In this document: piece after piece, positions 21,650 through 62,977 of the stretch | Numbering within the stretch: the stretch's first letter is position 1 | Layout: every line of letters begins with the position of its first letter | Source: a virus | Virus record (IMG/VR): IMGVR_UViG_3300027749_000055 | Location: 49,660 to 113,659 of that record | Length of the DNA stretch: 64,000 nucleotides | Strand: one strand, 5' to 3' | The notes under the pieces: model-generated | The model's input: the letters and a program-made list of their open reading frames with translations, nothing else | Databases searched by the model: none | Told to the model about the DNA's origin: nothing | Made by a program: the position numbers and the translations under genes

Positions 21650-23365
21650 TTAGCCGTAAACAACGTCGCCGTAGAAGACGAGTTGCCAGAAAGCGTCGTT
21701 TCCGATTGCGTCGGTGTCGTCCAGCGCACCAAGTCGTCCGGCATACTTATCGTTGTATGCAGAGTAGGCACGGGCAATGTCGCTCATATTGGCAGTCTTG
21801 ACTGCTGAGTGGTCGCCGTCGTCTCCCTTTTCGGGGTCGTCGCACTTCGCCGTGAACGTAACCTTCGACCAATCATCAGTCGGGCTGGGCTTGCCGTCTT
21901 CTCCAAGGACATTTTCTTGGGATTCGTAACCAACGGTTCCGGTGTCCTTGCCGTTCGAAATCTTGATTTCGCCAAACCAACTGCCCCAATACGACATATT
22001 GCTGCACACTCCGTCGAGCAACTCACGGGCGTTCACGGGGGTTGGAATAGTCATCTTGTCGCCATTGAAGGCGGGGGCGGCTTGACCCATTTGGCTGCTG
22101 ATACTCGGACTAGCCGTTTCGAGTTCCGCTAGGTCAAGACCTTCTTCGTCCGCAACAATCTTGATTGCGTCGTTGATTGCGTCCGACAACTTCCCAGACG
22201 ATTCAAGAAGAGACATACCGTTGTCGTCGCCCAAATATTCGTGGTCTGAGTCAGTGAGGGCGTAGTAAGGCCAATAATCAGGCATTTGCTCGTCCTGCAA
22301 GGCGGACAACTTTTCGTCAGTGTCGAAACCGGCGGCAATCAGTTCTTCGCCGTCTTGGGCTGCGCTGCCATTGGGAAGGGGTTGATACAGTTCGTGTTCA
22401 CTGCTAACCAAGTATTTTCTACCTGACGGGGCGGTAATGGTAGCCATTGTTGCGCCCGCAGGTTGAAACTCTGCCCACTGACGGTCAGGGTTTACGTCTT
22501 CGTTTATCTTCAACTTCATTCCCTTGGGGAGAGAAAATGAAGAAGCGTCTAGCGTTGCGCCCTCAGGCTTACGACCCGAACCAGGCCCGCCCTTGCGAAC
22601 CTTAGACTTGGCATACTCCGAAGGAACGTTACCTTCCCATTGTTCCGGCATTTCACTAGGGTCTGCCTTGACGAGTGACGCAATTGCCCTGTCGGTGGTT
22701 GCGTTTGCTTCCTCAGCGTTGGAAATAGCGTCGCCGTGGTCGTTTAGTGCGCCTTCTTCGTCGCCACCCTCGAACTTTTGAACGGCGGAGTTGGCGAGTT
22801 GTGAAGCCAGCGAGTGCAACTCGGCAGCCTGACCAAAGAGAGCCGAGGCACTGTTGAGGTCACGACCTGCCTGACCATTGGTGACGAGCGACCGTTGGAA
22901 CAGTTCATTCTCATTGCCCTTGCAAATGTCCGCAAGGCGGGCAGACTCGTCTGCCGCTTCCTTCAGTTCGTCGGTGTCTTGGGCGTATTGAATAGCGGTG
23001 GGCTGCATACTTGCCGACATTTGGATATCGCCCGTCGTGTATGCGCTAGGACGACGACCCGAACCAGGCCCGCCCTTAGAGACTTCCTCGTCCGGCCAGA
23101 CACCGTTCACCGGCAGAACGTAGTAGTCGTCGTAGTGGTGTTCGGAGTATTCGGGGTCGTCCTCGTCCGGCATTGGGTCGTTCTCGTAGATGTGACTCCA
23201 ACCGTCCTCGAATGAGGGGAAAGTCTTGCCACCGAAAAGGGTGTTGTTAGCCCAATCCTTGATGTGGAAAAGGGTCTTGGTGCGACCACTGCCCGGCCCG
23301 CCCTTGGTGAGCGGGAACTCCGCCTCGTTTATGAGGTTATCGGTAGTAAAGGGGTTGTAGGTCAT
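21650..23365 (-). CDS. KGGxGSGR-tagged modular protein (3 tags)
   Basis: 571 aa; leader NPF...FPLTK; acidic modules. Confidence 0.8.
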   Translation of the reverse strand: MTYNPFTTDNLINEAEFPLTKGGPGSGRTKTLFHIKDWANNTLFGGKTFPSFEDGWSHIYENDPMPDEDDPEYSEHHYDDYYVLPVNGVWPDEEVSKGGPGSGRRPSAYTTGDIQMSASMQPTAIQYAQDTDELKEAADESARLADICKGNENELFQRSLVTNGQAGRDLNSASALFGQAAELHSLASQLANSAVQKFEGGDEEGALNDHGDAISNAEEANATTDRAIASLVKADPSEMPEQWEGNVPSEYAKSKVRKGGPGSGRKPEGATLDASSFSLPKGMKLKINEDVNPDRQWAEFQPAGATMATITAPSGRKYLVSSEHELYQPLPNGSAAQDGEELIAAGFDTDEKLSALQDEQMPDYWPYYALTDSDHEYLGDDNGMSLLESSGKLSDAINDAIKIVADEEGLDLAELETASPSISSQMGQAAPAFNGDKMTIPTPVNARELLDGVCSNMSYWGSWFGEIKISNGKDTGTVGYESQENVLGEDGKPSPTDDWSKVTFTAKCDDPEKGDDGDHSAVKTANMSDIARAYSAYNDKYAGRLGALDDTDAIGNDAFWQLVFYGDVVYG

Positions 23366-23374
23366 AATAAAATC

Positions 23375-24193
23375 CTATCTCACAATCTTCTTTAGTTCAG
23401 CCTTGATTTCCTTCGCCTTGTCTCCACGCCACGTCGAAGCGTTGGCGAGGAAGTAATTGACGATTGACTTTGCGGAGTCAAGTCCATACTTGTCCGTAAC
23501 GTCGTTTAGGTCGCCCATAGCGTCGAGGTAGGGCTTTGCGCCAAAGAAAACCTTGGAACCCCAATCACGGCGAATTTCTGAAGCGATTTCACTGAGGGGG
23601 CGGTGTCCCGATTGGGTCATATTTCCAGCCTCAGCAGTGCGTCCCGAACCCGGCCCACCCTTTTTGACGGACATAGCGTCGAGTTGAGCAATGGCGGAGT
23701 CAAGAGCCTTACTCATATCCTTGGAAAAATCCACCCAACTTTGAGGGGTTTCGGGGTTATCAAGACGTTCTTGTGGCGAACCCCAACGCTTGTAGTCCTC
23801 GTTTATGTCGTAAAGAAAGCCTGACCATTCTTCGGGAGTCTCAATCTTGCTCACTCGCTTGTCGTTGAGATACATATCACGGTCAGAAACAATTTCGTCA
23901 AGTTCTTCGTGGTTAAAGTTTTCCTTCAGAACGTTAGCGATAGCAACGTCCGTGGTTCCAAGGCTCTTTTCCCATTGGTTGCCACGGAACGGGTGTCCGC
24001 CCGCTTCGCCCTTTTGGAAACGCTCTGCCTTTTGGAAGAACAGTTCAAGTTCGACAGGTGAAAAAAGTTCAGACACAGCAAACGTAGACTTGTGAACCTT
24101 CGCACCACGCCGAGGGCGAGGCTTGCGAGTAGTTGAGCGTGACGACTTACGAGCCGCCTTTGCCATAAAGTCTTCTAAGCGTTCTTCGGACAC
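23375..24193 (-). CDS. Tagged modular protein (1 tag plus KGEAGGHPFRGNQW variant)
   Basis: 272 aa; C-terminal RPLSEIASEIRRDW...PYLDAM...YFLANASTWRG module. Confidence 0.8.
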   Translation of the reverse strand: MSEERLEDFMAKAARKSSRSTTRKPRPRRGAKVHKSTFAVSELFSPVELELFFQKAERFQKGEAGGHPFRGNQWEKSLGTTDVAIANVLKENFNHEELDEIVSDRDMYLNDKRVSKIETPEEWSGFLYDINEDYKRWGSPQERLDNPETPQSWVDFSKDMSKALDSAIAQLDAMSVKKGGPGSGRTAEAGNMTQSGHRPLSEIASEIRRDWGSKVFFGAKPYLDAMGDLNDVTDKYGLDSAKSIVNYFLANASTWRGDKAKEIKAELKKIVR

Positions 24194-24225
24194 AGTTTTT
24201 GCCTTTCTAGCAGTGAAATACAGGA

Positions 24226-25437
24226 CTAGGCGGACATAAAGCCGGTGTCGCCCATAACCCGACTCGTTTCACCACGGGTGGGGCTGGTCGCTGCTTCAGC
24301 GGAAATTCCAGCCTTCTCACGGCAAACGCCAGCCAAGTGCTTCGCACCATACGCCATATTACGAGCGTCGGCAGCCTTTTCCTTCCACTGCTCACCAAGT
24401 GCAGCGTCAGCGTCCTTGTGACCCTTGGCAGCCCATTCGAGGTGAGTGCCACCGAAACCGTGGGCGTGACCCTGAGCCAACATAAGCAACTTCGACGCTT
24501 CGTCATACTTCTCAGCAGCCTGAGCGTAAGTGTCCTTGCTCTTGGTCTTGTCGGCTTCGCTACGCAACTTGTCGGCAGAACGGAGAGCCTCACGACCAGC
24601 CTTGAAATTAGCCTCGTAGCCAGCCCCGTAGTTCTTGTTACGGGTCTTCCAGCCAACACGGACGGTCTTGCCCTCAGGAGTCTTCTCACGGGTGTTTACA
24701 AGTTCGCCTGTGTGCTGGTTGGCACGACCACCACCGTCGCCCTTGTGACGACCTGAGCGACCCTTCACGCCATACTTGGTGACGTTGATGTAGGACTGAA
24801 ATCCCGCCGACTTTTGGAAGTCACGGGTAAGAAGCGAAGAAGTGCTGAACGACTTAGAAAAATCTTCGTCCTCGTCGTAGTAGGTGTCCTCAGCCTGTGC
24901 AGGGAAACGACCCATTTGGCTTTCGTGAACCAAACCGTCGTTCAAACCTGAGCAGCACGGGCACGACGAGTCGCCGTCACCGAAGCAAAGGGGGCACATA
25001 ACCAAAACGGCTTCCTTGGCAAACTTCATTTCAATTCCTTTCGCTGCGGGCGCAGACTTAGTAATTTGGGGGGTTGATTCGCCCTTGGCAAAGTCACGCA
25101 GACCGCCAAGGATTTCCGAAGCCTTGGTGAACATTTCACCAGCCGCTTCGTGTGCCTTGTCTGCCTCACGGAAGCCAGCAAGTGCGTTGTTGTAAGCCTT
25201 CTTCAACTCGGTGGAGTTCCAAGCGTTCTTAGCCACCGCCTCGAAGTATGCGATTTCGGTAGCCTTCAGGTATTCCGTAGCCTTTTGGAGACGGAATGAG
25301 GTGTTTTCCAATTCGCCACGGGCGACCACTTCGTCACGGCTCGCTTTAGCAATTTGAGTGGCGGCGAGAACGGGGTCTGCTGAACCCTTCTGCACAAACG
25401 AGACAGTCTTGGGGGAACTGTTGGGAACCTGAATCAT
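24226..25437 (-). CDS. Modular protein with variant tag VTKYGVKGRSGRH and Cys cluster
   Basis: 403 aa; CPLC...CPCC; many hydrophobic-x-K-[SAG] sites. Confidence 0.75.
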   Translation of the reverse strand: MIQVPNSSPKTVSFVQKGSADPVLAATQIAKASRDEVVARGELENTSFRLQKATEYLKATEIAYFEAVAKNAWNSTELKKAYNNALAGFREADKAHEAAGEMFTKASEILGGLRDFAKGESTPQITKSAPAAKGIEMKFAKEAVLVMCPLCFGDGDSSCPCCSGLNDGLVHESQMGRFPAQAEDTYYDEDEDFSKSFSTSSLLTRDFQKSAGFQSYINVTKYGVKGRSGRHKGDGGGRANQHTGELVNTREKTPEGKTVRVGWKTRNKNYGAGYEANFKAGREALRSADKLRSEADKTKSKDTYAQAAEKYDEASKLLMLAQGHAHGFGGTHLEWAAKGHKDADAALGEQWKEKAADARNMAYGAKHLAGVCREKAGISAEAATSPTRGETSRVMGDTGFMSA

Positions 25438-25466
25438 TGGAAAAATCCTTTCGGTTGTTCGTGAAA

Positions 25467-25490
25467 ATGCTACACCGCACTTTGGAAAAA
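25467..25490 (-). promoter_or_regulatory. Late promoter-like motif
   Basis: TTTTTCCAAA gtgcggtg TAGCAT. Confidence 0.55.
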
Positions 25491-25496
25491 GGCGGT

Positions 25497-26657: not shown

Positions 26658-26663
26658 TTTTCC

Positions 26664-27578
26664 TTACGCTTGACCGTCACGACGGACGGCTTCTTCAAAG
26701 TCTTTGTCGGCACGGGCGGGAACGCCTCGAAGGTCGGCTGCCTTGGCACTGCGCTGAACCCACGACGGGTGAAGGGTGGAAACATCACGGAGTGAAGCCG
26801 CAAGTCCACCGTGGCGAAGGTTGGCAGAACCGTGTTCCTTGATTGCTTTTTCCAAAGAAGGCAGGACTTCGGGCGATACTTTGTCTCGCATAGCCATAAG
26901 AGCCTTTTTCACGCCGACGTGTGCGGCGGCTACGTCACGGTGGTAGGCGTAAACCTCGTCCTCGTCACGCATATTGTGAGGCTTACCCAACTTGCTGTCC
27001 AAAAGAGTCTTGGCGTTCTTGTAGTTGTCGTAGCCGTGAGGGGTGCGACCAGAGCCAGGCCCACCTTTACGGAGAGCCGACTTGTGGGCGTATCCAAAGT
27101 AGCCACTCAGGTCAGCGACGGGAGGCTCGACGGTGGCGGGGGGTGCGGTGGGCATTTCACGCTCAATGAGGTCAATAAGGCTGTTGGTCACATCTGCGCT
27201 GTCTCGAAAGAGACGAGCGGTGTCGTAGTTGTCTACCATTGAGTGAAAGTATGCGTCGTTACGCATTTTGCTCACATCTTCACGCATTTCGGCAATGTGC
27301 TGGCTCAAAGGCTTCGAGTATGCCGCCTCAATGCGGTCTGCCATTGAGGTAGCAGTGCGACCAATTCGTGCATTTTGACGGCGAACCTGACCAATAATCG
27401 TGTCGCCGTATTCGGGCTTGTATCGGTTGCCGAGAACGTCGGTCTTGGGTCGCTTGCCGGTGCGGGGGGAGTCCCAATCGTTTGCCTTGGCTTCGGCGGC
27501 GATAGCACGAAGACGGGCAACCGCTTGTGCGTGTCGCCCAGAGCCAGGCCCGCCCTTAGTGAATTCGAACTTAGACAT
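26664..27578 (-). CDS. KGGxGSGR-tagged modular protein (2 tags)
   Basis: Start MSKFEFTKGGPGSGRH, just after the Dps stop. Confidence 0.8.
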   Translation of the reverse strand: MSKFEFTKGGPGSGRHAQAVARLRAIAAEAKANDWDSPRTGKRPKTDVLGNRYKPEYGDTIIGQVRRQNARIGRTATSMADRIEAAYSKPLSQHIAEMREDVSKMRNDAYFHSMVDNYDTARLFRDSADVTNSLIDLIEREMPTAPPATVEPPVADLSGYFGYAHKSALRKGGPGSGRTPHGYDNYKNAKTLLDSKLGKPHNMRDEDEVYAYHRDVAAAHVGVKKALMAMRDKVSPEVLPSLEKAIKEHGSANLRHGGLAASLRDVSTLHPSWVQRSAKAADLRGVPARADKDFEEAVRRDGQA

Positions 27579-27580
27579 AA

Positions 27581-28039
27581 TTATCCTTCCAAAGAAACAG
27601 AGAGTTGCCACGCCCACTTGGAGTGAGCGTCAATTCGGTCTGCCAAAAAGTTAGCAATGCCTTGCTCGTTGAGCGATGTTGCCATATCAAAAGCGTCCTT
27701 CAGGCTTTCCAAAACGCCTTCATTTGTGCGAAGAAGGTCGTCCACAAGGTTCTGGGCAGTGAAATCGTCTACGGGGCTGTTGTCCACCGAAGAAAAGGCG
27801 GTGAGCGCAGAAAACGTAAAGGGTGCAAAAACACCGACCTTGCGAATGTTCTCCGCTAAGGGGTCAATGCTGTCGTAAACGTCCTCGTAGATTTCCTCAA
27901 ACTTGCTGTGCCACTGCGGGAAGTCACCACCGACCACGTTCCAATGGAAGCCGTGGACACGGTGATACATAATCGTCACATTGGCTAAGCAGGTGCTTAG
28001 CAAGTCCCCAAGGGGTGCGCTCTCCTTACGAATACGCAT
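27581..28039 (-). CDS. dps: Dps (mini-ferritin, DNA protection)
   Basis: HGFHWNVVGGDFPQWHSKFEEIYE...DPLAENIR; AHSKWAWQL. Confidence 0.9.
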   Translation of the reverse strand: MRIRKESAPLGDLLSTCLANVTIMYHRVHGFHWNVVGGDFPQWHSKFEEIYEDVYDSIDPLAENIRKVGVFAPFTFSALTAFSSVDNSPVDDFTAQNLVDDLLRTNEGVLESLKDAFDMATSLNEQGIANFLADRIDAHSKWAWQLSVSLEG

Positions 28040-28041
28040 TT

Positions 28042-29973
28042 TTACGCCGAACGAGGGCGACGAATCACTGCGCCTTCACGCAGAGTCCTGTCGTTGATTG
28101 CCTGACGGAAAGCGTGTGCTACTTCGCTCGCAGATTCCGCAGAACGAATGGTTTTTTCAGCGACGTTGGCTGCCTTGTCTGCCTTGTCTGCAAGACGCTG
28201 ACCATCAACCGAATCGGGGTCGCCACCCTTGCGGAGAAAGCGAGAGTAGTCATTAGCGGTCTTAGAAGCCTCACGCATTGCACGACGACCCATATGCGTT
28301 GCTTCGTAGACCTTGCCAGCGGCTTCACCCAAGTTGGTGTTCGTCATTGAGTAGAAACGCTTGGGCGACTGCAGAAGGTAGGTAGCCATAGTGCCGTGGA
28401 ACGAGGCTTCGTGCAGGTGTTCTTCAGCCTTTCCATACTCTCCACGGTTCACCAATGCACGGGCGGCTGCAATGTGGGCGGCTGCGGCTTCGAGGTGCTG
28501 ACCGTGGTTGAAGTTTTCAGTGCCAGGCCGAATGTCAAAAGTTACGCCTTGACCGTGAGCCGAGGTCTTGCGGTTGCCACGGAAGCGCAACTTTTCGTTA
28601 CTGCCTTCTTCCCTGTGGCGACCTGAGCCCTCACCGCCCTTACGCACCTTCGACTTGTTGAAAACAATGGCGGGTTCGCCCATTTCGTTTTCAATGGTGA
28701 GGCACTGAACGGCAAGGTCACGGAGACGAGCGGCCTCACGGGAGGCTGCGCCAATAGCGTCACCGTCACCGAAGGGCTTGAACTCGCTAACCAAAAAGTC
28801 GTAGAAGGTGGCGGACTGACGGAAGACCGTAGCGGCGGCTACGAACATTCCACGCTCAACCAGAGCGTCAGCCTCGTCTTCCAATGCAACAGCCGTATCA
28901 ACGAGGTCTTGCACATTTGATTTGTTGATTTTTATTTGTCCTCCTACGGACTTAGTTATCGAGAATTCGAGGTGAACTGCGTCGTCGTCACCGACAACGG
29001 CGGTCACGCCGCCACGGCCAAAATAAGATTGAACTGCGTCGGAGAGTTCCTGACCATTGGGAATGTCTCTATCCCAGAAGCCAGTACCGTGACCGTTGGC
29101 GGTCAAAACAATGTCGTCACCAATGTTTTCGTCGGGCAGACCCGATTGTTCAAGGGCGGCAATGTTGTCGCCAACAAAGTCAAAAATTGCGTCGCCCAAA
29201 GCGTTAGCGTCTCCACGGTCAAAGTCGTCAATACTGTAAGTTCCGTCCAAGAACCCACTCCATTCGTCGCCGTCGTCGGGCATAGTCTCAGTGGCAAGAA
29301 GCGCACCAAGCGCATTGCGAGTAATAACTTGCAGGTCAAAGACACGTCCGTCCAAAGTCTTCAACTTGGGGAGATTGCCGTCCAAAAAGGTCGTGGTTCT
29401 TTCGGGGTGTCGTCCTGAGCCAGGCCCGCCTTTGGCAACTACTTTGCTGTCGGGGTCGTTGTATCCAAGGAAGAGTGAGCCGCCAATGTAAACCTTGTCG
29501 CTTTCATTTTTTTGCGACAACTTTTCTGCGTCGAGAGTGGCAACGGTGGCTGCTTTGGAAGCCGCTGAAACTTGGCTAGAGGTTGCCTTGGGTTTGTCGA
29601 AGCCAGCGAGAGCCTGCGCCTCTGGTGTGGTGGGTTGTGCCCACTCGCCCATTTTGTTAGCGATAGTAGCCGCCGCCTTGTAGTGAGCGTCAGCGGCGGC
29701 GAGGTTTGCCCGAACTGCACGGTCATCACCAGCCGTTGCTTGTGCAAGTTGCTTGTGCAGGTCAGCCATAATTTCGTGCGCTTCAATAGCGGCGTTCGCT
29801 TGGTCGGGAGTAAGGTTCTTGGCATTTTCCAGAACAAGGTTAGAGAGACGAACTGCCTCGCCGCCCAAGGTTTCCTTGGTGTGAGTTGAACCCTTGGGGT
29901 AGCGACCTGAACCTGCACCGCCCTTGGCAACGTTGAGCCATTGCTCAACCGTTTTAGTGAAACTGTCCGTCAT
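28042..29973 (-). CDS. KGGxGSGR-tagged modular protein (3 tags)
   Basis: 643 aa; leader FTKTVEQWLNVAK; module with LTANGHGTGFWDR. Confidence 0.8.
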   Translation of the reverse strand: MTDSFTKTVEQWLNVAKGGAGSGRYPKGSTHTKETLGGEAVRLSNLVLENAKNLTPDQANAAIEAHEIMADLHKQLAQATAGDDRAVRANLAAADAHYKAAATIANKMGEWAQPTTPEAQALAGFDKPKATSSQVSAASKAATVATLDAEKLSQKNESDKVYIGGSLFLGYNDPDSKVVAKGGPGSGRHPERTTTFLDGNLPKLKTLDGRVFDLQVITRNALGALLATETMPDDGDEWSGFLDGTYSIDDFDRGDANALGDAIFDFVGDNIAALEQSGLPDENIGDDIVLTANGHGTGFWDRDIPNGQELSDAVQSYFGRGGVTAVVGDDDAVHLEFSITKSVGGQIKINKSNVQDLVDTAVALEDEADALVERGMFVAAATVFRQSATFYDFLVSEFKPFGDGDAIGAASREAARLRDLAVQCLTIENEMGEPAIVFNKSKVRKGGEGSGRHREEGSNEKLRFRGNRKTSAHGQGVTFDIRPGTENFNHGQHLEAAAAHIAAARALVNRGEYGKAEEHLHEASFHGTMATYLLQSPKRFYSMTNTNLGEAAGKVYEATHMGRRAMREASKTANDYSRFLRKGGDPDSVDGQRLADKADKAANVAEKTIRSAESASEVAHAFRQAINDRTLREGAVIRRPRSA

Positions 29974-30005
29974 AAACCCTCCACAAGAGTTGTCGTATCG
30001 GGCAA

Positions 30006-30029
30006 ATACTAGCCCTTGATTTGGAAAAA
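30006..30029 (-). promoter_or_regulatory. Late promoter-like motif
   Basis: TTTTTCCAAA tcaagggc TAGTAT. Confidence 0.55.
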
Positions 30030-30036
30030 CCGGATT

Positions 30037-30345: not shown

Positions 30346-31860
30346 TTAGTTGTCTCCTAAGAATGTCTTGTAGGGCGATTCTTCCACGGGAAGGTCGGCT
30401 TCGACACCTGAGCCCGTGCCACCGATTGAGTAGCCACGGAGTTTGCCTTCCTTCACAAGTTCCCAAGCCCACGGTTCCCACTGAACACCGAGGAAAACGG
30501 TTCCGGCGGGGAATGAAACCTGCTTGATTTCACCACTGTTTGCCTGAAGCATTGGAACGGTGACTTCGTGCGGCCAAGTGAGGGCTTCGAGCCATTCTCC
30601 CGCCACAATGTCCACGTTGTGCTGAAGGCGAATCTGCCTGTCTCCGTTGCGGACGTAGCCCCAGAGTGCTTCTTGGAGTTCCTGCGGGTCAGTCCACTCG
30701 CCGTGAGCGTCTGAGCGATAAGGCACATACCACGGGCCCATTGTGTAGCGTTGCTCGTCCGACTTGCGAATTTGATTGGGAATTAACTCGGATTTTTGCA
30801 GAAGGTTTGCGTCCTGCACAACCTCAGGGTTTACTTCTTCAATAACAGTCATAGTTTCCGGCACAAACTTGGGCTTGCGACGGAAACTGCCGACAAATGA
30901 GCCCACTCCGCCACCGTTGCTCGGTGCGTCAATGTGGACGCTGGCAACGTCGGGGTTATTTTTGCGGTAGGGACGGCGGGGAGCGTCCTCGGAATCGTCC
31001 TCGTCACTTTCCATATCTTCTTCTTCTTGGTCTTCGGGAGAGCCAAAAATGTCCTCGTCTTCTTCGTCACGGTCACGACCAAAGCCAAAGAACTTGTTGT
31101 ATTCGACCTCAGAAGTGGCTTCCGCCTCTTCCAAAACTTCAACCATATTCAGACGACACCAACCGTCAGCGTCGCACTGAACGGCAACCCATTGGCAACC
31201 ATTGAGAGTGCCCGCCACGCAGTTTGAGCAAGTCAAACCACGGTCACGGAACGGTGAAATCGAGACGTAGGACACGTCAGTTGTGGGGAAACGACCCAGA
31301 TTTTGAACCGTCTCGTCCAAATCCTCGGCAAGTTCAACCTGCCACGGGTCAAGACCGTCCTTCCAATTCGAACCCAACATTTCACTATCGTCAGAAGACG
31401 AAGAATCGCTGGAATCTGAACTGTCGCTGGACGAAGAAGAATCACTGCTGTCCGAGTATTCGCTTGAACTGTCGTCGTATTCGGAAGAATCTTCCATAGA
31501 ACTGTAGTCATCTGAGTCATCTTCGGTGTCTTCTTGCATAGCCGAGAGAATGGCTGCGACGGTAGCGGGGTTTAGCGTCACCTGAACGTCCGTGGAAGAA
31601 TCGTCTTCAACGTCGGCAGGAACGGGGCTGGGCGTGAATGAAAACGGGAAGCCGACAGCCTTCTTGCTAGGAACCATTTTGAGGGAAACCTCTCCGTTTT
31701 TTTCCACGGCGGTCAATGTTGCGGTTTCGTAACCCTCGTTGAGTAGTCGTGCGGCGTATTCCCGCACCTCCCCGTCAATGGATTTGTTGATAATAACGCT
31801 GGCGAGTTCAACTTCTTCTATCACGTCAATAATCTTTGAGTTGTCCACAACTTCTCCCAC
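30346..31860 (-). CDS. XkdF-like prohead serine protease with acidic N-terminal region and HiPIP-like Cys domain
   Basis: EQRYTMGPWYVP...DAHGEW...LQH...AWELVKEGKLRGYSIGG; CSNC...C...GWC. Confidence 0.8.
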   Translation of the reverse strand: MGEVVDNSKIIDVIEEVELASVIINKSIDGEVREYAARLLNEGYETATLTAVEKNGEVSLKMVPSKKAVGFPFSFTPSPVPADVEDDSSTDVQVTLNPATVAAILSAMQEDTEDDSDDYSSMEDSSEYDDSSSEYSDSSDSSSSSDSSDSSDSSSSDDSEMLGSNWKDGLDPWQVELAEDLDETVQNLGRFPTTDVSYVSISPFRDRGLTCSNCVAGTLNGCQWVAVQCDADGWCRLNMVEVLEEAEATSEVEYNKFFGFGRDRDEEDEDIFGSPEDQEEEDMESDEDDSEDAPRRPYRKNNPDVASVHIDAPSNGGGVGSFVGSFRRKPKFVPETMTVIEEVNPEVVQDANLLQKSELIPNQIRKSDEQRYTMGPWYVPYRSDAHGEWTDPQELQEALWGYVRNGDRQIRLQHNVDIVAGEWLEALTWPHEVTVPMLQANSGEIKQVSFPAGTVFLGVQWEPWAWELVKEGKLRGYSIGGTGSGVEADLPVEESPYKTFLGDN

Positions 31861-31905: not shown

Positions 31906-32013
31906 CTATGCCCGTGGTTGCCGTGCCTTTAGAGCGGTAGCGGGAGAGACACGGCGAAGGGTTGTGCGATTCTTCTTGGGTTGTGCGCTTACTTTACGAA
32001 AACGTAGGGTCAC
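31906..32013 (-). CDS. Very basic 35 aa peptide
   Basis: GTGA overlap with the portal stop; MTLRFRKVSAQPKKNRTTLRR... Confidence 0.4.
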   Translation of the reverse strand: MTLRFRKVSAQPKKNRTTLRRVSPATALKARQPRA

Positions 32014-33680
32014 GACGTAGTTCCTTGGTTGTTAGTTAGCGGGCCGTTCGCCCCCGTCTTCGGACGCTTGATTTGCCGTCCTACCTTACCAGCGGTGTTA
32101 CTACCGCCCGTCTTTCCTTTGCCCTTCTTGGAGCCTGCGCCGACGGTGGGGGGTGCTTGTCCGGTGTATCCGGCAGAGGTAATATCCTCTTGAAGTCCGC
32201 TACCGCCAGACATATCGTTCAGTCCGCCCTGCGGATTTTGAACGTCCGAGGCTTCGGTTTTTCCTTCGGGGCTTGCACCGGAAGGCTTCTCTGCCACAAA
32301 AGGTTTGTTGTGGTCTTCGGCGGGCGTGTCCGCAACGGTCTGACCGCCATAACGCTTGTTGTCCGACAAGCCATTTGCCTCCGGCTGAAAACCAGGCAAC
32401 CCCGCCAACTCTCGGAGGTATTCTTCCAAATTGTTGTCGGGGGTAAGCAACTTGGCGTTGGTGATGTTTGTGAGGAACGCACCGAGTTCCTGCAAGTCCA
32501 CGGCGGAAATCTGACCATATGCCAACTGCGGGCAACGTGCCGTGTCCATACCGTTGAGTTGGAGAAGGCGGGGAATGGCGTGAGAATTGAAGACCTCAGC
32601 AATGAGGCGAACCCACGATTCCACTGCGGAGACAAAGAGGTCTACCTTCGAGGTTCCGAGGGCAAACGAACCCACCGATTCGTGACCGAGCATAATGAAG
32701 TCCGCCAGAACCGTCATAGCAATATGTTGGTTATAGCGAGTGATGATTTGGTCGGTGTTGAACTGACGGTTTCCGCCCGACGTTAGCAACTTAAAGTCCA
32801 CAAGGGGCTTGCCTGCCTCGTCAAAGATTGCGGGCAAAATAATGCCTTCGGTCTGGTTGCGCTTTACACCACGGACAATTGCTTCCATAGCGGCAAGTGC
32901 GGATTTTTCCGCAGGAGTAGCCGAAGACGACAACCATTCTGGCGGAACATACGCCATTGGCAGACCGGCAAGGTCACGCTCAACGCCGACGGCTTCAAAT
33001 TCCTCAATGCGACGCTTGTAATACCACGACTTGAAGGCGTTACGAAGAACTGAACGACCTTCGGGGTTTCCACGGGCGGTTGTAGTGCGGAACAGCAAAG
33101 CCTTCTCAATTGGAATAACGTTTAAGCGACCCGTCGTCGGGTCACGCTGAATCATTGCCTTGATTCCACCACTCTCGTCAAACTGCCACTGCCAGAGCGA
33201 GTCTTGGGTTCGCATAGCAATCTTGCGCCAGCCGATTTTGTTGTCCGAATACTTGGAACGCTTGGCGGGGTCTTTTTGCTTCGGCCCCTTGCGCTGCTTG
33301 TAAATCAGTTCAAAGAATGACCAGCCGTAAGGCAAGAACGACAGAACTGCAATAATAAGTTCGTGCCAACTGTGCGACATATCGTCCATACACTCGGCAA
33401 TAAACTGTGCGACGGCACGGTCATTATCCGTGGGGGTTTCACCCGTGGTGTCGTCGTAGGGGTCAATGCGCCAATCCACCTGAAGGATTACACGCTCGAT
33501 AGCAAATAACATTGCGCCGATAATTGGGTCGTTCTCCGACATATCTCGATAAGCGGTTTGTGCTTGCTTACCTCGAAGTTGGGGGAGGATATCGTCAATG
33601 ACGAATCCACCTGTGCGCCAAAGACCCGACGCACCTAGTTCTGAGAAGTTGTCTAAGGGAATCTTCTCGTTATCGGGCAT
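32010..33680 (-). CDS. Portal protein
   Basis: 556 aa; AYRDMSENDP, NPEGRSVLRNAFKSW...IEEFEAVGVERDLAGLP, GSFALG; upstream of the protease. Confidence 0.88.
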   Translation of the reverse strand: MPDNEKIPLDNFSELGASGLWRTGGFVIDDILPQLRGKQAQTAYRDMSENDPIIGAMLFAIERVILQVDWRIDPYDDTTGETPTDNDRAVAQFIAECMDDMSHSWHELIIAVLSFLPYGWSFFELIYKQRKGPKQKDPAKRSKYSDNKIGWRKIAMRTQDSLWQWQFDESGGIKAMIQRDPTTGRLNVIPIEKALLFRTTTARGNPEGRSVLRNAFKSWYYKRRIEEFEAVGVERDLAGLPMAYVPPEWLSSSATPAEKSALAAMEAIVRGVKRNQTEGIILPAIFDEAGKPLVDFKLLTSGGNRQFNTDQIITRYNQHIAMTVLADFIMLGHESVGSFALGTSKVDLFVSAVESWVRLIAEVFNSHAIPRLLQLNGMDTARCPQLAYGQISAVDLQELGAFLTNITNAKLLTPDNNLEEYLRELAGLPGFQPEANGLSDNKRYGGQTVADTPAEDHNKPFVAEKPSGASPEGKTEASDVQNPQGGLNDMSGGSGLQEDITSAGYTGQAPPTVGAGSKKGKGKTGGSNTAGKVGRQIKRPKTGANGPLTNNQGTTS

Positions 33681-52412: not shown

Positions 52413-52420
52413 GATTTTCT

Positions 52421-52981: not shown

Positions 52982-52991
52982 CAAGCCCTCC

Positions 52992-53995: not shown

Positions 53996-54084
53996 TGAGA
54001 CAGTATGCCAGACCTATCTGATACTTGACAAACATTTTCTTTTGATACTTGACGAGGGTTGTGTCGAGCAACTAGCCTTGTCGT

Positions 54085-55475: not shown

Positions 55476-55479
55476 AGGT

Positions 55480-56060: not shown

Positions 56061-56062
56061 GC

Positions 56063-57097
56063 TTACTTGTAGACGTGGTGCGACAACTTCTTGTCGGGGA
56101 ACGTTCCGTATGCCTTGCCGGTAGCGGGGTCGGTAATTCCAACAATGTTTCCCTTGCCCATAAACCTGTTGGTCTGGTCGTGCTGGAAGGAAACAACGTC
56201 GCCAATCTTTTCGTCGCTGCCTTGACGCTCGATTACACGGGTGAAGATAGTCCCGTTGGGTCGGTAGCCCTGAACAACAATGTGCTGCTCTGCGGGGCTG
56301 AATCCGTAAGGCTCGTTCTTACCCGTGCCCTCTTCGAGAGTGCGGGGGTTCACCATTCCGTCGGGGAGGGTGGGGTTGCCACGGTAGTAAAAACTACGAG
56401 GGCCGGTGTGGTATTCGGGGGAACCCGTGCGGAAGAACTCCCCACGCTCGGCGGAGGTCAGGTCTTCTTCGGCAACGTCGGTCATTCGAGTAACGGTTGC
56501 GGTGCGCCCAGAACCAGGCCCGCCCTTCGTCACCGTTGAATCCTCGACGTAATAGGGGAAGGTGTTACCTTCGGGGTGTTCCGAAACGTAGCGAGCAATA
56601 CGGCTTGCGGTGGCGGCGTCGGCACTGGCGGCAAAAGCCTTAATCATTTCACTATCGGAAGGGTTTGCCAATCGTGTAACTTCCTTCCAAGCGTCTGCGG
56701 CGTCTAGGTGCGCCGCAGCAGCAGCGTAGTGAGCCTTACTTGCGTCGGTTTGGAACATTTCACCTGTGTAGTCAAAGTTGCGTGACGGGGCATACAAGTT
56801 TGCCCCTTCGATAGCGTGTGCCTTTAGAATTTCAGTGTGTTCCCTAGCCATATCCGACGCTTCGGCTCGGATTTCCGCAGGGGTCTGGTCTTCAAGACCA
56901 ATGTTGTCGTGGGCGTTTTCAAGGATAGCCGCAGAGTGGTCGGCAAGAACCGAGGGGACGGAAGGCTCTTCACCCGAAGCGAGACGAGAGACTTCCCACG
57001 TCGTCAGATTTTCGGCGTAGTGGTTGGAGTGATTGGCGTGGCGACCTGAGCCCTGTCCGCCCTTTGCAATTTGTCCGGTTCCTTGTGAAAAGTCCAT
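56063..57097 (-). CDS. KGGxGSGR-tagged modular protein (2 tags)
   Basis: 344 aa. Confidence 0.8.
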   Translation of the reverse strand: MDFSQGTGQIAKGGQGSGRHANHSNHYAENLTTWEVSRLASGEEPSVPSVLADHSAAILENAHDNIGLEDQTPAEIRAEASDMAREHTEILKAHAIEGANLYAPSRNFDYTGEMFQTDASKAHYAAAAAHLDAADAWKEVTRLANPSDSEMIKAFAASADAATASRIARYVSEHPEGNTFPYYVEDSTVTKGGPGSGRTATVTRMTDVAEEDLTSAERGEFFRTGSPEYHTGPRSFYYRGNPTLPDGMVNPRTLEEGTGKNEPYGFSPAEQHIVVQGYRPNGTIFTRVIERQGSDEKIGDVVSFQHDQTNRFMGKGNIVGITDPATGKAYGTFPDKKLSHHVYK

Positions 57098-57106
57098 TGT
57101 GGTTCC

Positions 57107-59959
57107 TTATCGCTTGTCTTCGCCAAATGAAACGTTTACATACATACCAGCGTTGTAGGCGACTTCGCCCACTTCGTCGGCATACACGTCGGTCTGCTCA
57201 CCCTTGACGTTCACCTTGCCCGCACGGACGTTCACACGCTGAACGGTGTAGGTGTCGTTGTCTGCGAGGTAGACACGAACCTTGTAGCCGTGTCCAATAG
57301 GGAGTTCAATGCCAACGGGCTTGTTCTTCTCCGTGAGGACGCTAACTCGACCACCGCTCAAACCAAGAATGTTCATCTTTCCAATTTGAGCGACGGTGGT
57401 TTGCGGGTCAAAGTCACGGTGTCCGCAGTTGCTAGGCATACCCGTCTCAGGGTGTCGTCCCGAACCCGGCCCGCCCTTTCGGACGCTGGACTTTCCCAGC
57501 ATTTCCTGACGGTCAAGCCACGCACCAACTGACGACTGCTTGTAGTCAGCGGGGCGGCTAGGGGCTTGGGTGGCACGGTAAATCTCGTCCTGCGTCACAC
57601 TGTCGGCAGTGTAAGCAAGTTCGTTTGCTTGGTTTGCCATTTCTTCCAACTGCTCGTCGGTGTAATTTCCAAAGTTGCCCTTGGAAATCAAGTCGTTAAA
57701 AGCCTGCGCCGCAGCGAGGTGAGCGTCGGCAGAAGCGGTGAAGCCTTGCTCACGAAGTTCCTCAGAAAGTTCTTCGTGGTCACTAGCGGTGGCACTAATG
57801 GAGTCCTCAAAGTCGTTCCATTGGTGTCCGTCGCCAAGATTGGTGTTGATAGCGTCGCTCATCAAAGCGAGACGAGTCGGCTCGTCAATACCTTTACCCT
57901 GAGCCTCAGACATTGCTTCGGCTCGGTCAGTGATTTCAGCCTTGCTACGTCCGTCGCTGGTGCGGGTGTATCCGTAGTTGTTCAAGTGGTCGTTGAAAGC
58001 GTCGGTGTGCGCCTGACCTGCGGGCGAAGTGTCTTCCTGACCCTCGCTACGAGTGTCGTGGTAGTTCGACATAGCCCCGCCGGAATACTTGCCAGCCCAA
58101 CCTTGGGGGTGACGACCTGAGCCAGGCCCACCCTTTCGAAGTGCGGACTTTTCAGTGCTTTCGCCTTCCTTTGCCATTTCAATAGCGGCTTCGATTGCTT
58201 CTTGTGCGGAACTATAGGCGTCGCCGTAAAAATCGCCGTCAGGATTTCCAACTTCAAACCAAGGGTTTAAACTAACAAGGTCGTTATCGTAAAGTTCGTT
58301 AAGTTGGTCGTCATTGACGATACCGGCACTAAAAAGGTCGTTTGCGCCGTGTGCTTGGTTTCCGTCGGGAAGTTCAATGCTCGTTTCACCAACCGCATAA
58401 ACGGTGAACGCATCTCCGTTTTCGTTTTCAACCCAAGCAACGGGTTGATTTTGTGGGTAGTGTTCCGCAAATTGCCGCTCAGGGTTCTTTGCGTCGTCGT
58501 TTCCAATTTCGAGCGTTATGCCTTCCGGCACGTCAAAAGAAATCTCGGCGTGACGTCCAGAGCCAGGCCCGCCCTTAGTGAAAACCCTGTCGGTGCGTCC
58601 ACGAACCATATCCTTAGCCGAGTAGACGTGCATTACCGTCTCTTGAAGGTTGTAGGCACGATTAGCCCACGTCCGAGCCTGCTTGTCGTAGGCAATGTGG
58701 TTGATTGGGTCGAGTGAAGCGGCAACTCGGTAGTGACCCGCAATCATATTTGCGAGGTGAGCCAACTTTTCGTTGGAATCTTTATTACCGTGAAGACTAA
58801 CTTCGTGAAATTCCTTCTCCAACTTGTTAGCGTTAGTGATTGCCTCGTCACGCTTGGCTGCCATTTCCTTTGCAGTCATCTTCGAGGAAGGCTGGTTGTA
58901 ATTACGCATATTAAACTTGGAAGAGAAGTCTTCCTTGTGACGACCAGAACCAGGCCCGCCCTTCTTCACCTTTTTTGCAGACTTCACAAATTGGTCAGTG
59001 GTAATCGGGCCACCCTTGTTGTCGCCTTCGGTGAAGTAAAACGCTTGTCCGTCCGTCACGCCACCCTTGTCTCCCGAAGTGGCGGCGTATGAAGCGTTCA
59101 CAGCCTTCACAGTGTTCTCGACGCTGGGATTGTCGGCGGCTGCGTAGTGGGCACGGGCGGCTTCGTCGTGCAACTCAGCCATACCCTTCCAATCGGGATT
59201 ATCGCTTTGAGCGTTGTCGGCAATCATTTGTAGGAAGCCGACGTGATTGCGGAGACGACCAGCCTCTTCAACGTGGCGACGAGCCTGCGAATCGTGACGC
59301 ATAGGCGAAACCTTGCCGTTCGCCTTCTGAACGTCCATATACATACGAGCGGCGGTGTCTTGAATTTTTTGCAAAGCCGCAGCAGTTTCGTGAGAAGTGC
59401 GCTCAGGGTGACGACCAGAGCCTTCGCCACCCTTAGTGACTCCCTGTTCCGCCCTTACCTCGGCATACTTGGCTCGCTTTTGAGCGCAGTCTGCTTCTGA
59501 GGTGCAAGGTGCGTCGCCGTGCATTTTGTGCCAATTGTCGTGGTCTTGGTCGTGGCGCATAACGGTAGCAAGTGACTCACTAGCGTCTTTGGCTACAAAC
59601 TTTTGTAGTCCAAAGTGGTTAGTGTATTTTTCAGCAAAGTCACTTTGCGCTTGTGCGATACTGCCTCCCTTTTCCCACGAATCCCTAGCGGCGGCGTGTG
59701 CTGAAGCGGCTTTGTAGGCAATGTTTGACCCCGTAATGTCGCCACGCTTATCAGCCTTGCGAGCCTCCACAACCAAACGGTTGATTTCTCTCTGGTGATA
59801 CTGCGCCTTTGGGTTGGAATAGCGTGTCTTAGCCTCGCCAAATCCAGCCGCAACGGTGTCGTCTGAACTGCGCTCGGCGTGACGTCCTGAACCTTTGCCA
59901 CCCTTCAAGATTTCACTAACCCACTGCTCAGCAGCCTTCTGAATACGGTCTTGTGCCAT
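57107..59959 (-). CDS. KGGxGSGR-tagged modular protein (6 tags)
   Basis: 950 aa; leader RIQKAAEQWVSEILK. Confidence 0.85.
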   Translation of the reverse strand: MAQDRIQKAAEQWVSEILKGGKGSGRHAERSSDDTVAAGFGEAKTRYSNPKAQYHQREINRLVVEARKADKRGDITGSNIAYKAASAHAAARDSWEKGGSIAQAQSDFAEKYTNHFGLQKFVAKDASESLATVMRHDQDHDNWHKMHGDAPCTSEADCAQKRAKYAEVRAEQGVTKGGEGSGRHPERTSHETAAALQKIQDTAARMYMDVQKANGKVSPMRHDSQARRHVEEAGRLRNHVGFLQMIADNAQSDNPDWKGMAELHDEAARAHYAAADNPSVENTVKAVNASYAATSGDKGGVTDGQAFYFTEGDNKGGPITTDQFVKSAKKVKKGGPGSGRHKEDFSSKFNMRNYNQPSSKMTAKEMAAKRDEAITNANKLEKEFHEVSLHGNKDSNEKLAHLANMIAGHYRVAASLDPINHIAYDKQARTWANRAYNLQETVMHVYSAKDMVRGRTDRVFTKGGPGSGRHAEISFDVPEGITLEIGNDDAKNPERQFAEHYPQNQPVAWVENENGDAFTVYAVGETSIELPDGNQAHGANDLFSAGIVNDDQLNELYDNDLVSLNPWFEVGNPDGDFYGDAYSSAQEAIEAAIEMAKEGESTEKSALRKGGPGSGRHPQGWAGKYSGGAMSNYHDTRSEGQEDTSPAGQAHTDAFNDHLNNYGYTRTSDGRSKAEITDRAEAMSEAQGKGIDEPTRLALMSDAINTNLGDGHQWNDFEDSISATASDHEELSEELREQGFTASADAHLAAAQAFNDLISKGNFGNYTDEQLEEMANQANELAYTADSVTQDEIYRATQAPSRPADYKQSSVGAWLDRQEMLGKSSVRKGGPGSGRHPETGMPSNCGHRDFDPQTTVAQIGKMNILGLSGGRVSVLTEKNKPVGIELPIGHGYKVRVYLADNDTYTVQRVNVRAGKVNVKGEQTDVYADEVGEVAYNAGMYVNVSFGEDKR

Positions 59960-59971
59960 TATTTTTCCTTT

Positions 59972-60619
59972 TTAGCGGTAAGCGTCACGGTATTTGCCTG
60001 TGACGTTCAGGCGGTAATACGGGGGAAGAGTGTGGGATACTTTGCCATCGTAATAAACATCTTTGGCTGGCATTTTTTCCATAGTTCCGACATAACCCTT
60101 TTCAGCAAGGGCTTGACCAAGAACCATAAGTTCCTTCTTCTGGTCAAGCAAAGAAAGTTCTTCGCTTTGTCGTGTCCAGCCCCTGATTCCCACGGTAAGG
60201 CTCGCACCCTCTTGAGTGTATGTGCCCTGTGAATCAACGGTAAATCTGTGCCAGCCTCGGTAGTAGTCGTCGCTTCCGTTTCGTGCCGCATAACCCAAGC
60301 GATTACCCTCAACCCTGATTGACGAAATCACAGTAGATAGACGGCTTGCTTCACGGGTGATACCCGTGTTCTGCGAGTGATTGGAAACCGTTTGAACCCA
60401 ACCACGATTTCGCCCTCTGTCAATAATGAACTGATTAGATTTTGCGTCCTGCTCGCCAAAGTGGACAAAATCAAACCTACTCTCGTCCTTGAACTTGGCG
60501 GGAGTTTCTCCCATTGAACGCAGTTCGGGCTGTTTGGTGGCGTGACGACCACTGCCCGGCCCACCCTTGGTGATTTCACCAAGCCAGATTTCAATTGACT
60601 TTTCAATACGGTCAGACAT
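59972..60619 (-). CDS. KGGxGSGR-tagged protein (1 tag)
   Basis: 215 aa; leader RIEKSIEIWLGEITK. Confidence 0.8.
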   Translation of the reverse strand: MSDRIEKSIEIWLGEITKGGPGSGRHATKQPELRSMGETPAKFKDESRFDFVHFGEQDAKSNQFIIDRGRNRGWVQTVSNHSQNTGITREASRLSTVISSIRVEGNRLGYAARNGSDDYYRGWHRFTVDSQGTYTQEGASLTVGIRGWTRQSEELSLLDQKKELMVLGQALAEKGYVGTMEKMPAKDVYYDGKVSHTLPPYYRLNVTGKYRDAYR

Positions 60620-60676
60620 TTGGAACTCCTAGTTCTTCTGTCGCTAAAGTTACCAGCGGTTTACGATTTTTCCGTT

Positions 60677-62224
60677 TTAGAGGGTCGCAACAGAAGCGGC
60701 AATAGCCTTTTCTGAAGCGTCTGCGGCAGCACCAGACAAAGCCGTGTAAGCGGCGTTGTCCTTTCCAGCCATTTGCAGGACAGAGGCAGCCCCGTCGTGA
60801 AGTTCGGCAGCCTTCTGGTGAGCAGCAATCGCCGTCATTTCACTGTCGCCGTAAAAACGGCTTGGGGTGTTCATCATTTCACGGTGGAGGTCGGCAGCCG
60901 TGGCGTGGTCATCGTCTGCCACTGCCTCACGGATAGCCTCATCACGACCACCAAGGAGTTCGCTTTGAGCCGAAGCAATGTTGGCTTGTTCAATTGAATC
61001 CATAAGGTCTGAAATTGAGTCGTCAATGTCCGAAATAGCACCACTAAAGTCTTCCAAAGCCGACGAAGCGTCGTCCAAGTTTTCCCGTGCGCCGTCAAAG
61101 TCTCCATTATCAGACCAACCGTCAATAGTGTCTTCGTCGTATTCGCTAAGGATTTCAGAGAAGCCTTTTGCGTAGGAAGCACCACGCTCGGTAGCGGTTC
61201 CAAAGTCGTCAATAGCCGAGTGTGCGGCTTCGAGAGCGGTTTCAACCGAACCAACAAAATCAGGGAAGGCTTCTTGGAATTCTTCGTCGTAGTGAATCGC
61301 TCTTTGGATACTGTTAAGAACGCTCGTCATATCGTTTACGCCGTAATTGTTCAGTTGGCTAAAGTTTGATTGAGCGTCCAACGCAGAACTTGAAGCGTTG
61401 GAAAGTGCGCTTTCCCAATCGTCCCGTGCGCTCGTCATATCATCTACACGCTCGTCTTGGTTGTCGTAATCTTCTTCTTTGGCTGCTTCTAAAGCGTCAG
61501 AGGCACTTTCCATATCACTGATGTAACCCTCGGTGTCGTCAATGTTTGATTCAACGTTGCTTCCCAAGTTTTCACTAAGATTTTCGTGAACTTCATTGCC
61601 TAAAGCAAGGGCACTTTCAATACCAGAAACGTCCGGCATTGCAATAGAACCCTCTTTGTGGCGTCCAGAACCAGGCCCGCCCTTACGAACAACCGACTTA
61701 GCGAGTTGTTCCGCCATTGACGGGTCGTCTCCCCAATATTCGGGGGTTTCTTCGGGCGACATAACCGAATGACGAGCCACTGCCTTTTCGGTGTATGCGG
61801 CAGCCTTGTCTGACTCTGCCATTGCGCTCTCGATTGCACGGTGAGTTCTAGATGAAATGTTGTCTTCGTTTGCGCCCTTGTCCTTCGACAAAATGTCGGC
61901 AGCACGGTGAGCGGCGAGAGCGGCTGTGTCGTGTGCAAGGGCGGCTTGACGGTAAGAAAAAGCAACTTGTTGAGCGTTCGCATTGTTTTCCATTTCGCTT
62001 GCCTTGGAACGGCACTCAGCGGCGAGTTGTTCGTGTTCGTCGGCTGCCCGCTCAATCTCGTTAGCGTTGCCATACTCGATAGCGTTGGGCAGGCTGGTAG
62101 CCGACATATAGATATCGTTCACGGTGTAACCGTTACCGTGTCGTCCCGAACCAGGCCCGCCCTTCTTGACGGGGTAGTTGCTCAACCTTGGAACAAGGCT
62201 CTTCATTGAAAAAGGATTGGTCAT
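60677..62224 (-). CDS. KGGxGSGR-tagged modular protein (2 tags), highly acidic
   Basis: 515 aa; leader NPFS...YPVKK. Confidence 0.8.
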   Translation of the reverse strand: MTNPFSMKSLVPRLSNYPVKKGGPGSGRHGNGYTVNDIYMSATSLPNAIEYGNANEIERAADEHEQLAAECRSKASEMENNANAQQVAFSYRQAALAHDTAALAAHRAADILSKDKGANEDNISSRTHRAIESAMAESDKAAAYTEKAVARHSVMSPEETPEYWGDDPSMAEQLAKSVVRKGGPGSGRHKEGSIAMPDVSGIESALALGNEVHENLSENLGSNVESNIDDTEGYISDMESASDALEAAKEEDYDNQDERVDDMTSARDDWESALSNASSSALDAQSNFSQLNNYGVNDMTSVLNSIQRAIHYDEEFQEAFPDFVGSVETALEAAHSAIDDFGTATERGASYAKGFSEILSEYDEDTIDGWSDNGDFDGARENLDDASSALEDFSGAISDIDDSISDLMDSIEQANIASAQSELLGGRDEAIREAVADDDHATAADLHREMMNTPSRFYGDSEMTAIAAHQKAAELHDGAASVLQMAGKDNAAYTALSGAAADASEKAIAASVATL

Positions 62225-62239
62225 TTCACTACTCTCTCT

Positions 62240-62977
62240 TTACTTGCCGTGTCGGGTTGCTGCGGCTGTCTCGGACAATGCTTGTTGAGCAAGTTTCTCA
62301 ATACGGTCAAAGTGTTCCTTCTTGGCGGTTCCGCTCTCTACACGACGAGCAAGACCGGCGAGCGCACGGGAGGCAGCGGCATTGGCGGCGGCTGCGTCAG
62401 AGTGATACGCCGAGTGATACGCCGAGTCACCGTCACGGCGACCCACGGCACGGTGAAGTTGAGCCAACTGCGAGTGCAGTTCGGCAGCCTTCATCAACGC
62501 CTTGGCAGACAATCCGTCGGCATACCAAGTGTGACCAACCTCGTCGGCTTTGTCGGCAACTCGGTCAATGCGGTCAAGTGCTTGCGGGAGAGTAGTGCGA
62601 CCAGAGGGCTTGCGACCTGAGCCAACTCCGCCCTTTGCCACTATTGAACCGGCTTCCTTGGCACGGAAGTTTTCAATCAGTTGCTTAGCCGAAGCGAGGC
62701 TCGAAGGGAAGAGGCGAGAAACAGCGTCGGCTGAACGGTCAGAGTAAGGCTCTTGACGGTCTGCAATTCGAAAATCGTTCTTCGAGATTTGCGTGATAAA
62801 GAAACGCTCGTTCGACGACTGCCACGTCTTGCGACCACCCAGACCGTCGAGAGCCTTCCACTTCAGGGGCTTCAATGCACCCGAACCAGCGGTTCGTCCA
62901 CTGCCCACGCCACCCTTGGAGACGGGGTAGCGACTCAGGGTCGGGTTCAGTTCTTCGGGCGAAAACGGGTTAGGCAC
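62240..62977 (-). CDS. KGGxGSGR-tagged modular protein (2 tags)
   Basis: 245 aa; leader NPFS...YPVSK. Confidence 0.8.
   Translation of the reverse strand: MPNPFSPEELNPTLSRYPVSKGGVGSGRTAGSGALKPLKWKALDGLGGRKTWQSSNERFFITQISKNDFRIADRQEPYSDRSADAVSRLFPSSLASAKQLIENFRAKEAGSIVAKGGVGSGRKPSGRTTLPQALDRIDRVADKADEVGHTWYADGLSAKALMKAAELHSQLAQLHRAVGRRDGDSAYHSAYHSDAAAANAAASRALAGLARRVESGTAKKEHFDRIEKLAQQALSETAAATRHGK

Follow-up and report, generated by a model that had tools for sequence, protein, structure and literature searches.

Short N-terminal leaders on tagged proteins of an uncultured lake phage: candidate removable labels for capsid loading

The head-internal proteins IPI–III of bacteriophage T4 carry an N-terminal capsid targeting sequence (Mullaney and Black, in the form in which PMC9024508 cites them). 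The N-terminal signals of T4 IPIII and P1 DarB suffice for encapsidation, and in DarB, a large anti-defence protein that is injected, fewer than 30 N-terminal residues are enough to bring a reporter into the capsid (PMC9024508). Polyvalent proteins are multi-domain effector chains encoded beside head genes, which are presumed to be packaged and injected and have associated peptidases (Iyer et al. 2017, PMC5512222); as far as it was searched, that paper describes no shared N-terminal leader or repeated junction motif. Here we analyse 64,000 nucleotides of an uncultured lake phage with a genome of 114 kb (hereafter the window, i.e. bases 49660–113659 of the 113,659-base IMG/VR record IMGVR_UViG_3300027749_000055, completeness rating 91%), in which two families of short N-terminal peptides (leaders A and B) precede a repeated tag on otherwise unrelated proteins. 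It is related to siphovirus-like actinophages with a lambda-E-type capsid protein. We tentatively read both families as N-terminal propeptides of cargo inside the capsid, i.e. removable docking labels, and give this reading a rough probability of 0.4.

The leaders share with the T4 sequence the arrangement of a short N-terminal peptide on unrelated proteins (9–10 A and 3 B leaders here) that ends at a presumed head-protease motif and, in the present case, would be lost once the cargo has been loaded. In T4 the gp21-type (S77) protease cuts after L/I-x-E, whereas the enzyme here is of the XkdF/S78_2 type and the last position is Lys. Also, the present leaders are ~20 residues long with a long conserved motif, the primed side of the presumed cut is conserved over 8–16 residues, the phage lineage is a different one and function is read here from sequence alone. 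Because the protease is XkdF/S78_2-type rather than T4-type, the system would be a variation on the T4/P1 capsid-targeting idea. Likeness to the DarB signal is limited to position and length; that signal is known from one protein only, with no family on dozens, and we know neither of a resemblance in sequence nor of a repeated cut site to which it would be coupled. Ribosomal protein L27 shares an N-terminal extension cleaved by Prp with the scaffold and capsid proteins of Staphylococcus phage 80alpha. This resembles the present case in that one short N-terminal extension stands on several proteins and one specific protease would recognize the leader, but Prp is a host cysteine protease, the proteins concerned are structural rather than cargo and the sequence is another one.

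Tags were defined by the strict pattern [VILF]-x-K-GG-x-GSGR, and leaders were taken up to the Lys before the first tag. The window contains 28 strict tags, every one inside minus-strand open reading frames (ORFs), most prominently a block at 17369-29973 and a second cluster at 56063-62977; a third cluster occupies the first 22 kb of the genome. All seven N-termini quoted by an earlier sequence-only reading are present on the minus strand at the starts it gave. The six that it held to be clear (17–21 amino acids, aa) each end at the Lys preceding the first K/GGxGSGR tag (the slash marks the presumed cut), and families A and B are each represented in both clusters of the window, as it had described. 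An in-frame stop lies a few codons upstream of most leader starts, and a purine-rich stretch lies ahead of many. The leaders and related elements of the window are as follows.

62915..62977, minus strand: family A leader of 21 aa with a GTG start, on the 245-aa protein 62240-62977; its last residue is the Lys that precedes the first tag.
62162..62224, minus strand: family A leader of 21 aa, on the 515-aa protein 60677-62224.
23303..23365, minus strand: family A leader of 21 aa and of the NPF..-LINE-.FPL.K subtype, on the 571-aa protein 21650-23365.
29923..29973, minus strand: family B leader of 17 aa, on the 643-aa protein 28042-29973, which is encoded by the first tagged gene to follow the protease gene.
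59903..59959, minus strand: family B leader of 19 aa, on the 950-aa six-tag polyprotein 57107-59959.
60566..60619, minus strand: family B leader of 18 aa, on the 215-aa protein 59972-60619.
21531..21587, minus strand: Trp-containing N-terminus of the 77-aa ORF 21354-21587, previously counted as a loose B member; no tag, membership without statistical support.
21313..21354, minus strand: probable extra short A-type leader M..DF..ASLL.K with a degenerate tag; weak, with 3.1 bits alone.
57062..57097, minus strand: short leader of 12 aa ahead of the first tag in the protein 56063-57097, representing a third recurrent type (MDF...-K).
27555..27578, minus strand: very short leader of 8 aa, before the first tag of the protein 26664-27578.
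24775..24855, minus strand: internal A-type motif FST..LLTRDFQKS.. with a degenerate tag, in the protein 24226-25437.

Family A is a genuine shared leader. A tag-free profile built solely from the leaders of other phages scores A leaders of this genome at 26, 23, 19.4, 18.8 and 13.6 bits, against a maximum of 9.0 in 20 shuffled genomes, and the family is thus far beyond chance. Nine A-type leaders are found genome-wide, with a probable tenth at 21313-21354; the latter is likely the true start of the gene listed as 21019-21486, because its match to a relative begins at that internal Met. The family has the consensus MTNPF[SH]T..LL..LSNYPV.K; that of 83 unique leaders from the search of protein representatives described below is MTNPF[SH]T[DE].LL[PK]S.SNYPV.K, with Phe and Leu in all 83, and an alignment of 29 distinct A leaders from ~10 phage contigs shows Phe, Leu and Lys to be invariant. 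The invariant Phe and the Lys stand at an almost constant distance, which is 16 residues in the majority of members.

We then searched 1.84 billion protein cluster representatives with a profile of the leader plus the junction (i.e. the presumed cut site and the conserved motif that follows it, of which the tag is one form), and obtained 392 representative matches at E ≤ 1e-3 and 95 at ≤ 1e-10. Among the best 150 of these 392, an A leader is present in 86, the A motif is N-terminal in 86 of its 87 occurrences, and the first junction lies at most 60 residues from the N-terminus in 125. Encapsulin cargo-loading peptides are likewise short and dock diverse cargo inside an HK97-fold shell; they are usually C-terminal and not removed, in contrast to this N-terminal motif with a presumed cut site behind it. 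In the present genome and two related ones (G001, 121 kb; G002, 109 kb), 21 N-termini score at least 13 bits, seven per genome, and the next best scores 4.7. Conservation in relatives, on which the sequence-only reading had made its proposal depend, is thus found for family A, whose profile retrieves leaders across related phages.

A leaders occur in three second-half subtypes side by side within genomes. The A paralogues of the present genome encode the conserved residues with different synonymous codons, and therefore conservation acts on the peptide and does not reflect a recent DNA copy. The leaders are strictly N-terminal, under selection at the peptide level, portable among payloads and conserved across a large clade. 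When residues 1-40 of the 60677-62224 protein were used to look for homologues in a word-indexed search, the protein itself was the sole match. We also considered the A leader as a mimic of the capsid N-arm, with which it has a [VF]-H-I-D-like run in common, and rejected this idea: with the A profile, the capsid N-terminus scores −4.5 bits and ranks 846 among 1149 N-termini. On the plus strand, a 115-aa ORF (46976-47323) starts with M-T-T-N-P-F; the rest of the leader and the tag are missing, it scores 4.4 bits and it is probably a chance occurrence.

The protein that carries the internal A-type motif (24226-25437, minus strand) is conserved and consists of an N-terminal helical hairpin, two CxxC pairs, the internal motif and, at the C-terminus, a helical bundle. 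In this phage an insertion interrupts its tag (K-YG-VKGR-SGRH), which is clean in six relatives. An AlphaFold 2 model of this coiled-coil/zinc-ribbon protein places the motif and tag in a linker between two helical domains with a predicted local distance difference test score (pLDDT) below 50, and such a disordered linker, as modelled, fits a free linear motif. A second model, of a small A-leader protein, is poor (mean pLDDT 52.7); its leader has a pLDDT of 64–72 and a helical turn of only three residues.

Family B, also proposed from the letters alone, stands for its three clear members in the window, whose mutual ungapped BLOSUM62 scores are 28, 28 and 44 (shuffle p ≤ 4e-4), against at most 12 with non-B leaders. 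The N-terminus at 21587 drops out of the family, since its 7–10 bits lie inside the null range and it has no tag; a G001 protein with a similar leader gives a weak pairwise match to this ORF (E 0.042). Many N-terminal leaders in relatives have a D-A-E-I-x-x-W-[ILV] core and stand on genes just after the protease gene, whether or not a junction is present. The profile comparison that the sequence-only reading had suggested for both leaders succeeds widely for A; for B, profiles gave no link to these Trp-type leaders in either direction. The leader at 29973 has [IV]-E-[EQ]-W-L-x-[LV]-A-K in common with its positional counterpart in G001; it begins like an A leader and ends like the Trp-type leaders of relatives, in which hybrid N-termini also occur. 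By these comparisons family B can be taken as real but narrower than A.

It is conceivable, though quite unlikely, that the leader families together make up a small code of addresses, in which halves are combined. The first half would be NPF..-..L or D-A-E-I and the second SNYPV.K, DPIGK....ILK or P.W.KA.EILK, and different leaders would lead to different procapsid docking sites or loading times.

What follows the leaders is variable. BLAST alignments between leader-bearing proteins mostly end just after the tag; for example, residues 5-32 of one protein and 4-31 of another are 71% identical and the remainders are unrelated. Conversely, a helical first module of ~165 aa is common to proteins with an A leader (62224), with B leaders (29973 and 59959) and with short leaders (57097 and 27578), i.e. 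leaders exchange on homologous payloads. Pentapeptide repeats and a weak match to GNAT are found among the payloads, most of which have no Pfam family. Like polyvalent proteins, payloads belong to multi-domain chains near head genes: multi-tag chains reach 643–950 aa, and GNAT matches also lie in a 1222-aa chain (17369-21037), in keeping with several effector domains per chain beside virion genes. Residues ~290-341 of this 1222-aa minus-strand polyprotein belong to its leading domain, ending in ..PSPG[KR]VA.[YA]AWGG.., which in a sister clade of phages with 60-kb genomes stands directly before the protease domain; its presence in both settings indicates domain shuffling between protease and cargo genes.

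The junction itself differs among clades, while the hydrophobic-x-K ahead of it is constant. In the present phage it is K/GG.GSGR(H). The A leader is kept in G001 and G002 although the tag is replaced: most A leaders there end exactly at K/GD..GH.F.GNQ, and K/GD..GH.F.GNQ[WY] is the junction form of the 100–120-kb relatives. Only four GG.GSG tags are found in G001 and three in G002, against 24 and 20 matches to G[HN].[FY].GNQ, mostly after hydrophobic-x-K-GD, and hybrid junctions (K-GGPGSG...GH.F.GNQ) connect both forms. The 60-kb sister clade, which has the same capsid protein and protease domain, has the junction K-[YFA]-NP.HD..GRF..GGG after short N-terminal leaders of its own. The length and conservation of the primed side suggest that it has a function of its own.

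The GD..GHPFRGNQ form also occurs in genomes of Proteobacteria and Verrucomicrobia, once per long protein (600–1600 aa), usually after an acidic run and usually with no Lys ahead; about half of the 50 pattern matches are out-of-frame chance occurrences. It is present as well in an annotated 1222-aa 'internal head protein' of Xanthomonas phage Rb1 (6796-10461). No A-type leader was found beside it in either the bacterial genome matches or the Rb1 protein, and literature searches for the tag and junction strings returned nothing relevant.

Leader-bearing genes lie between the portal/protease and the scaffold/capsid genes, plus remote islands of like-tagged proteins. The scaffold-like and capsid genes follow ~20 kb downstream. 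The head genes of the window are as follows.

32010..33680, minus strand: Mu-type portal protein.
30346..31860, minus strand: 504-aa protein with a C-terminal XkdF-type (Peptidase_S78_2) serine protease domain and the motifs DAH, LQH and SIGG.
11622..12401, minus strand: scaffold-like protein with EGWVVMK/S near its N-terminus, which fits the rule hydrophobic-x-K/small.
10867-11619: small protein with a weak head-scaffolding PHROG match.
9827..10846, minus strand: major capsid protein (phrog_1005), without a tag.

The major capsid protein is 77–81% identical in leader-sharing relatives. Among the tagged genes, a 152-aa protein (27581-28039, minus strand) has a Dps/ferritin-like look with an H-W-N-V..G motif, matches phrog_3636 'DNA binding protein' (E 1.7e-26) and is 58–66% identical in relatives.

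The sole head protease domain found is PF14550 Peptidase_S78_2 (XkdF; E 9.4e-10), in the last ~140 residues of the 504-aa protein. Its DAH, LQH and SIGG motifs are kept in 17 protease-domain sequences, and the SIGG motif probably holds the catalytic serine; SIGGTGSG in this protein was considered as a tag and rejected, being part of the conserved SIGG motif and not a junction. This protease is presumed to be the enzyme that removes the leaders. The junction would be its cleavage site, cut after the Lys of hydrophobic-x-K/G, and three observations point to this: (i) the junction recurs between polyprotein modules; (ii) hydrophobic-x-K/small also stands ahead of the protease domain in the 100-kb clade (..[IV]-x-K/DSPTV..); and (iii) the EGWVVMK/S of the scaffold-like protein is nearly invariant across clades. 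The stretch before the protease domain (residues ~300-320, ..P.V..VH[VI]D.. after hydrophobic-x-K) resembles the capsid N-terminus (P.V..VHIDAIL, residues 4-15) and might tether the protease in the procapsid. In Arthrobacter phage Laroye, gene 18 (8592-9713), annotated as 'aldolase class I', ends with an XkdF-type protease domain (..GYSIGG..), and gene 17 is the annotated capsid maturation protease.

According to the capsid-loading reading, each cargo chain would be synthesized as leader, junction and payload(s); the conserved leader would act as a short linear docking motif through which the chain is brought into the assembling procapsid; and the XkdF-type head protease would then cut after the Lys of hydrophobic-x-K/G. 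The cut would free the leader and split the payload modules apart, as in T4 (capsid targeting sequence) and P1 (DarB N-terminus). The analogy with T4 that the sequence-only reading had drawn holds insofar as the peptides are short and N-terminal, stand on unrelated payloads, end at a presumed head-protease site and are conserved in relatives; it fails insofar as other tagged proteins have leaders of 6–12 residues and neither the protease nor the cut motif is related to its T4 counterpart.

Several points weigh against capsid loading. We infer the cut, the packaging and the docking partner from the letters, and the head-internal location of the tagged proteins from gene context only. The present genome has three tagged proteins with leaders of 6, 8 and 12 residues, outside families A and B, and database polyproteins likewise pair leaders of 6–12 residues with otherwise identical tags, so that A and B are no universal address and are not needed on every tagged protein; the shared label could instead be the junction. 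No receptor for the leaders was identified. Profiles of the relatives' Trp-type leaders miss the three B leaders of the window, and the reverse search fails too. No cultured relative carrying the leader/tag system was found among phage records and capsid-protein relatives: the second tagged cluster has no blastn match in 50,697 phage records, and the cultured relatives identified by their capsid protein (at about 50% identity, Laroye among them) possess the protease domain and no tagged cargo. Finally, if the protease contacted the chain at two points, the near-constant spacing from Phe to the scissile Lys would fit this as well.

This last point leads to the main alternative, which fits the data almost as well, although taken by itself we consider it doubtful: the leader may be a recognition or exosite element that recruits the XkdF-type protease, with packaging directed by the primed side or by other domains. 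Leader peptides recruit proteases in this manner for peptidases of ribosomally synthesized and post-translationally modified peptides and of double-glycine bacteriocins; the extension removed by Prp is a similar case. The invariant Gly-Gly end of double-glycine leaders (C39 peptidase) is absent here, with K-G-D in relatives that have the same leader. Recruitment would account for leaders being always fused directly to a junction, for the 16 residues from Phe to Lys in most members and for the junction that also comes next after internal A motifs in several proteins. A ParB-like protein (genome 15752-16717, 33.9 kb before the window) starts with an A leader, and its last 15 residues form an A-like motif. 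We considered the latter as a motif working away from a junction and rejected it, as a stop codon and then an in-frame GD follow; in the G001 counterpart of this C-terminal module, an A-like motif and a junction come after it. The C-terminal copy is probably the relic of a junction turned into a gene end, and therefore leaves no clean case of the motif acting away from a junction. However, most internal polyprotein junctions have no A or B motif upstream and yet would need cutting, identical tags are preceded by leaders of 6–8 residues, and a few A leaders have the K followed by non-junction sequence.

A further explanation is that the leader is a mere cleavable cap: every payload would have to expose the primed side as its free N-terminus, and a removable extension would thus be needed on the first module, and A and B would be conserved by descent as leader-junction cassettes spread through duplication and shuffling. 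A short pre-junction extension of some kind is indeed present in 125 of the 150 tagged proteins, those of 6 residues included, and several unrelated leader types exist, among them those of the 60-kb sister clade with its own junction (K-[YFA]-NP.HD..GRF). Against this, all 83 unique leaders have the Phe and the Leu, the leader is kept across phages with unrelated payloads, and codons that diverge synonymously while the peptide stays the same indicate that the leader sequence itself is under selection. We regard the cap as unlikely.

The leader could alternatively act at or after injection: it would stay in the virion and set ejection order or competence via the tail, or it would bind a host factor and be cleaved in the host cell. 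A late cut of this kind would be compatible with our results, and some A leaders without a recognizable junction would remain attached. Yet the protease domain is of the head-maturation type and adjoins the portal gene, and the same domain is found in the head module of the 60-kb relatives and of Laroye, which have no such cargo; this makes an injection signal improbable. Far more improbable still is a recognition tag for a modifying enzyme. G001 and G002 do retain a glycosyltransferase-like gene (14803-16035), but we found no enzyme that co-varies with the leaders, which are tied to the junction and not to a neighbouring enzyme gene.

If the leaders are loading signals, they would constitute a second capsid-loading system, unrelated in sequence and paired with the XkdF/S78_2 protease family, in abundant lake phages whose hosts are probably actinobacterial. 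Sequence would then be enough to flag injected proteins in hundreds of metagenome clusters, many of them of unknown function and probably acting in anti-defence or takeover; foreign proteins could also be packaged by means of a 21-residue tag. If a combinatorial code were true, this would be a programmable tag for packaging proteins, separate from the systems of T4 and P1, in a large uncultured clade of freshwater actinophage-like viruses. If the leaders recruit the protease instead, they would represent a new case of leader-guided processing in virus assembly.

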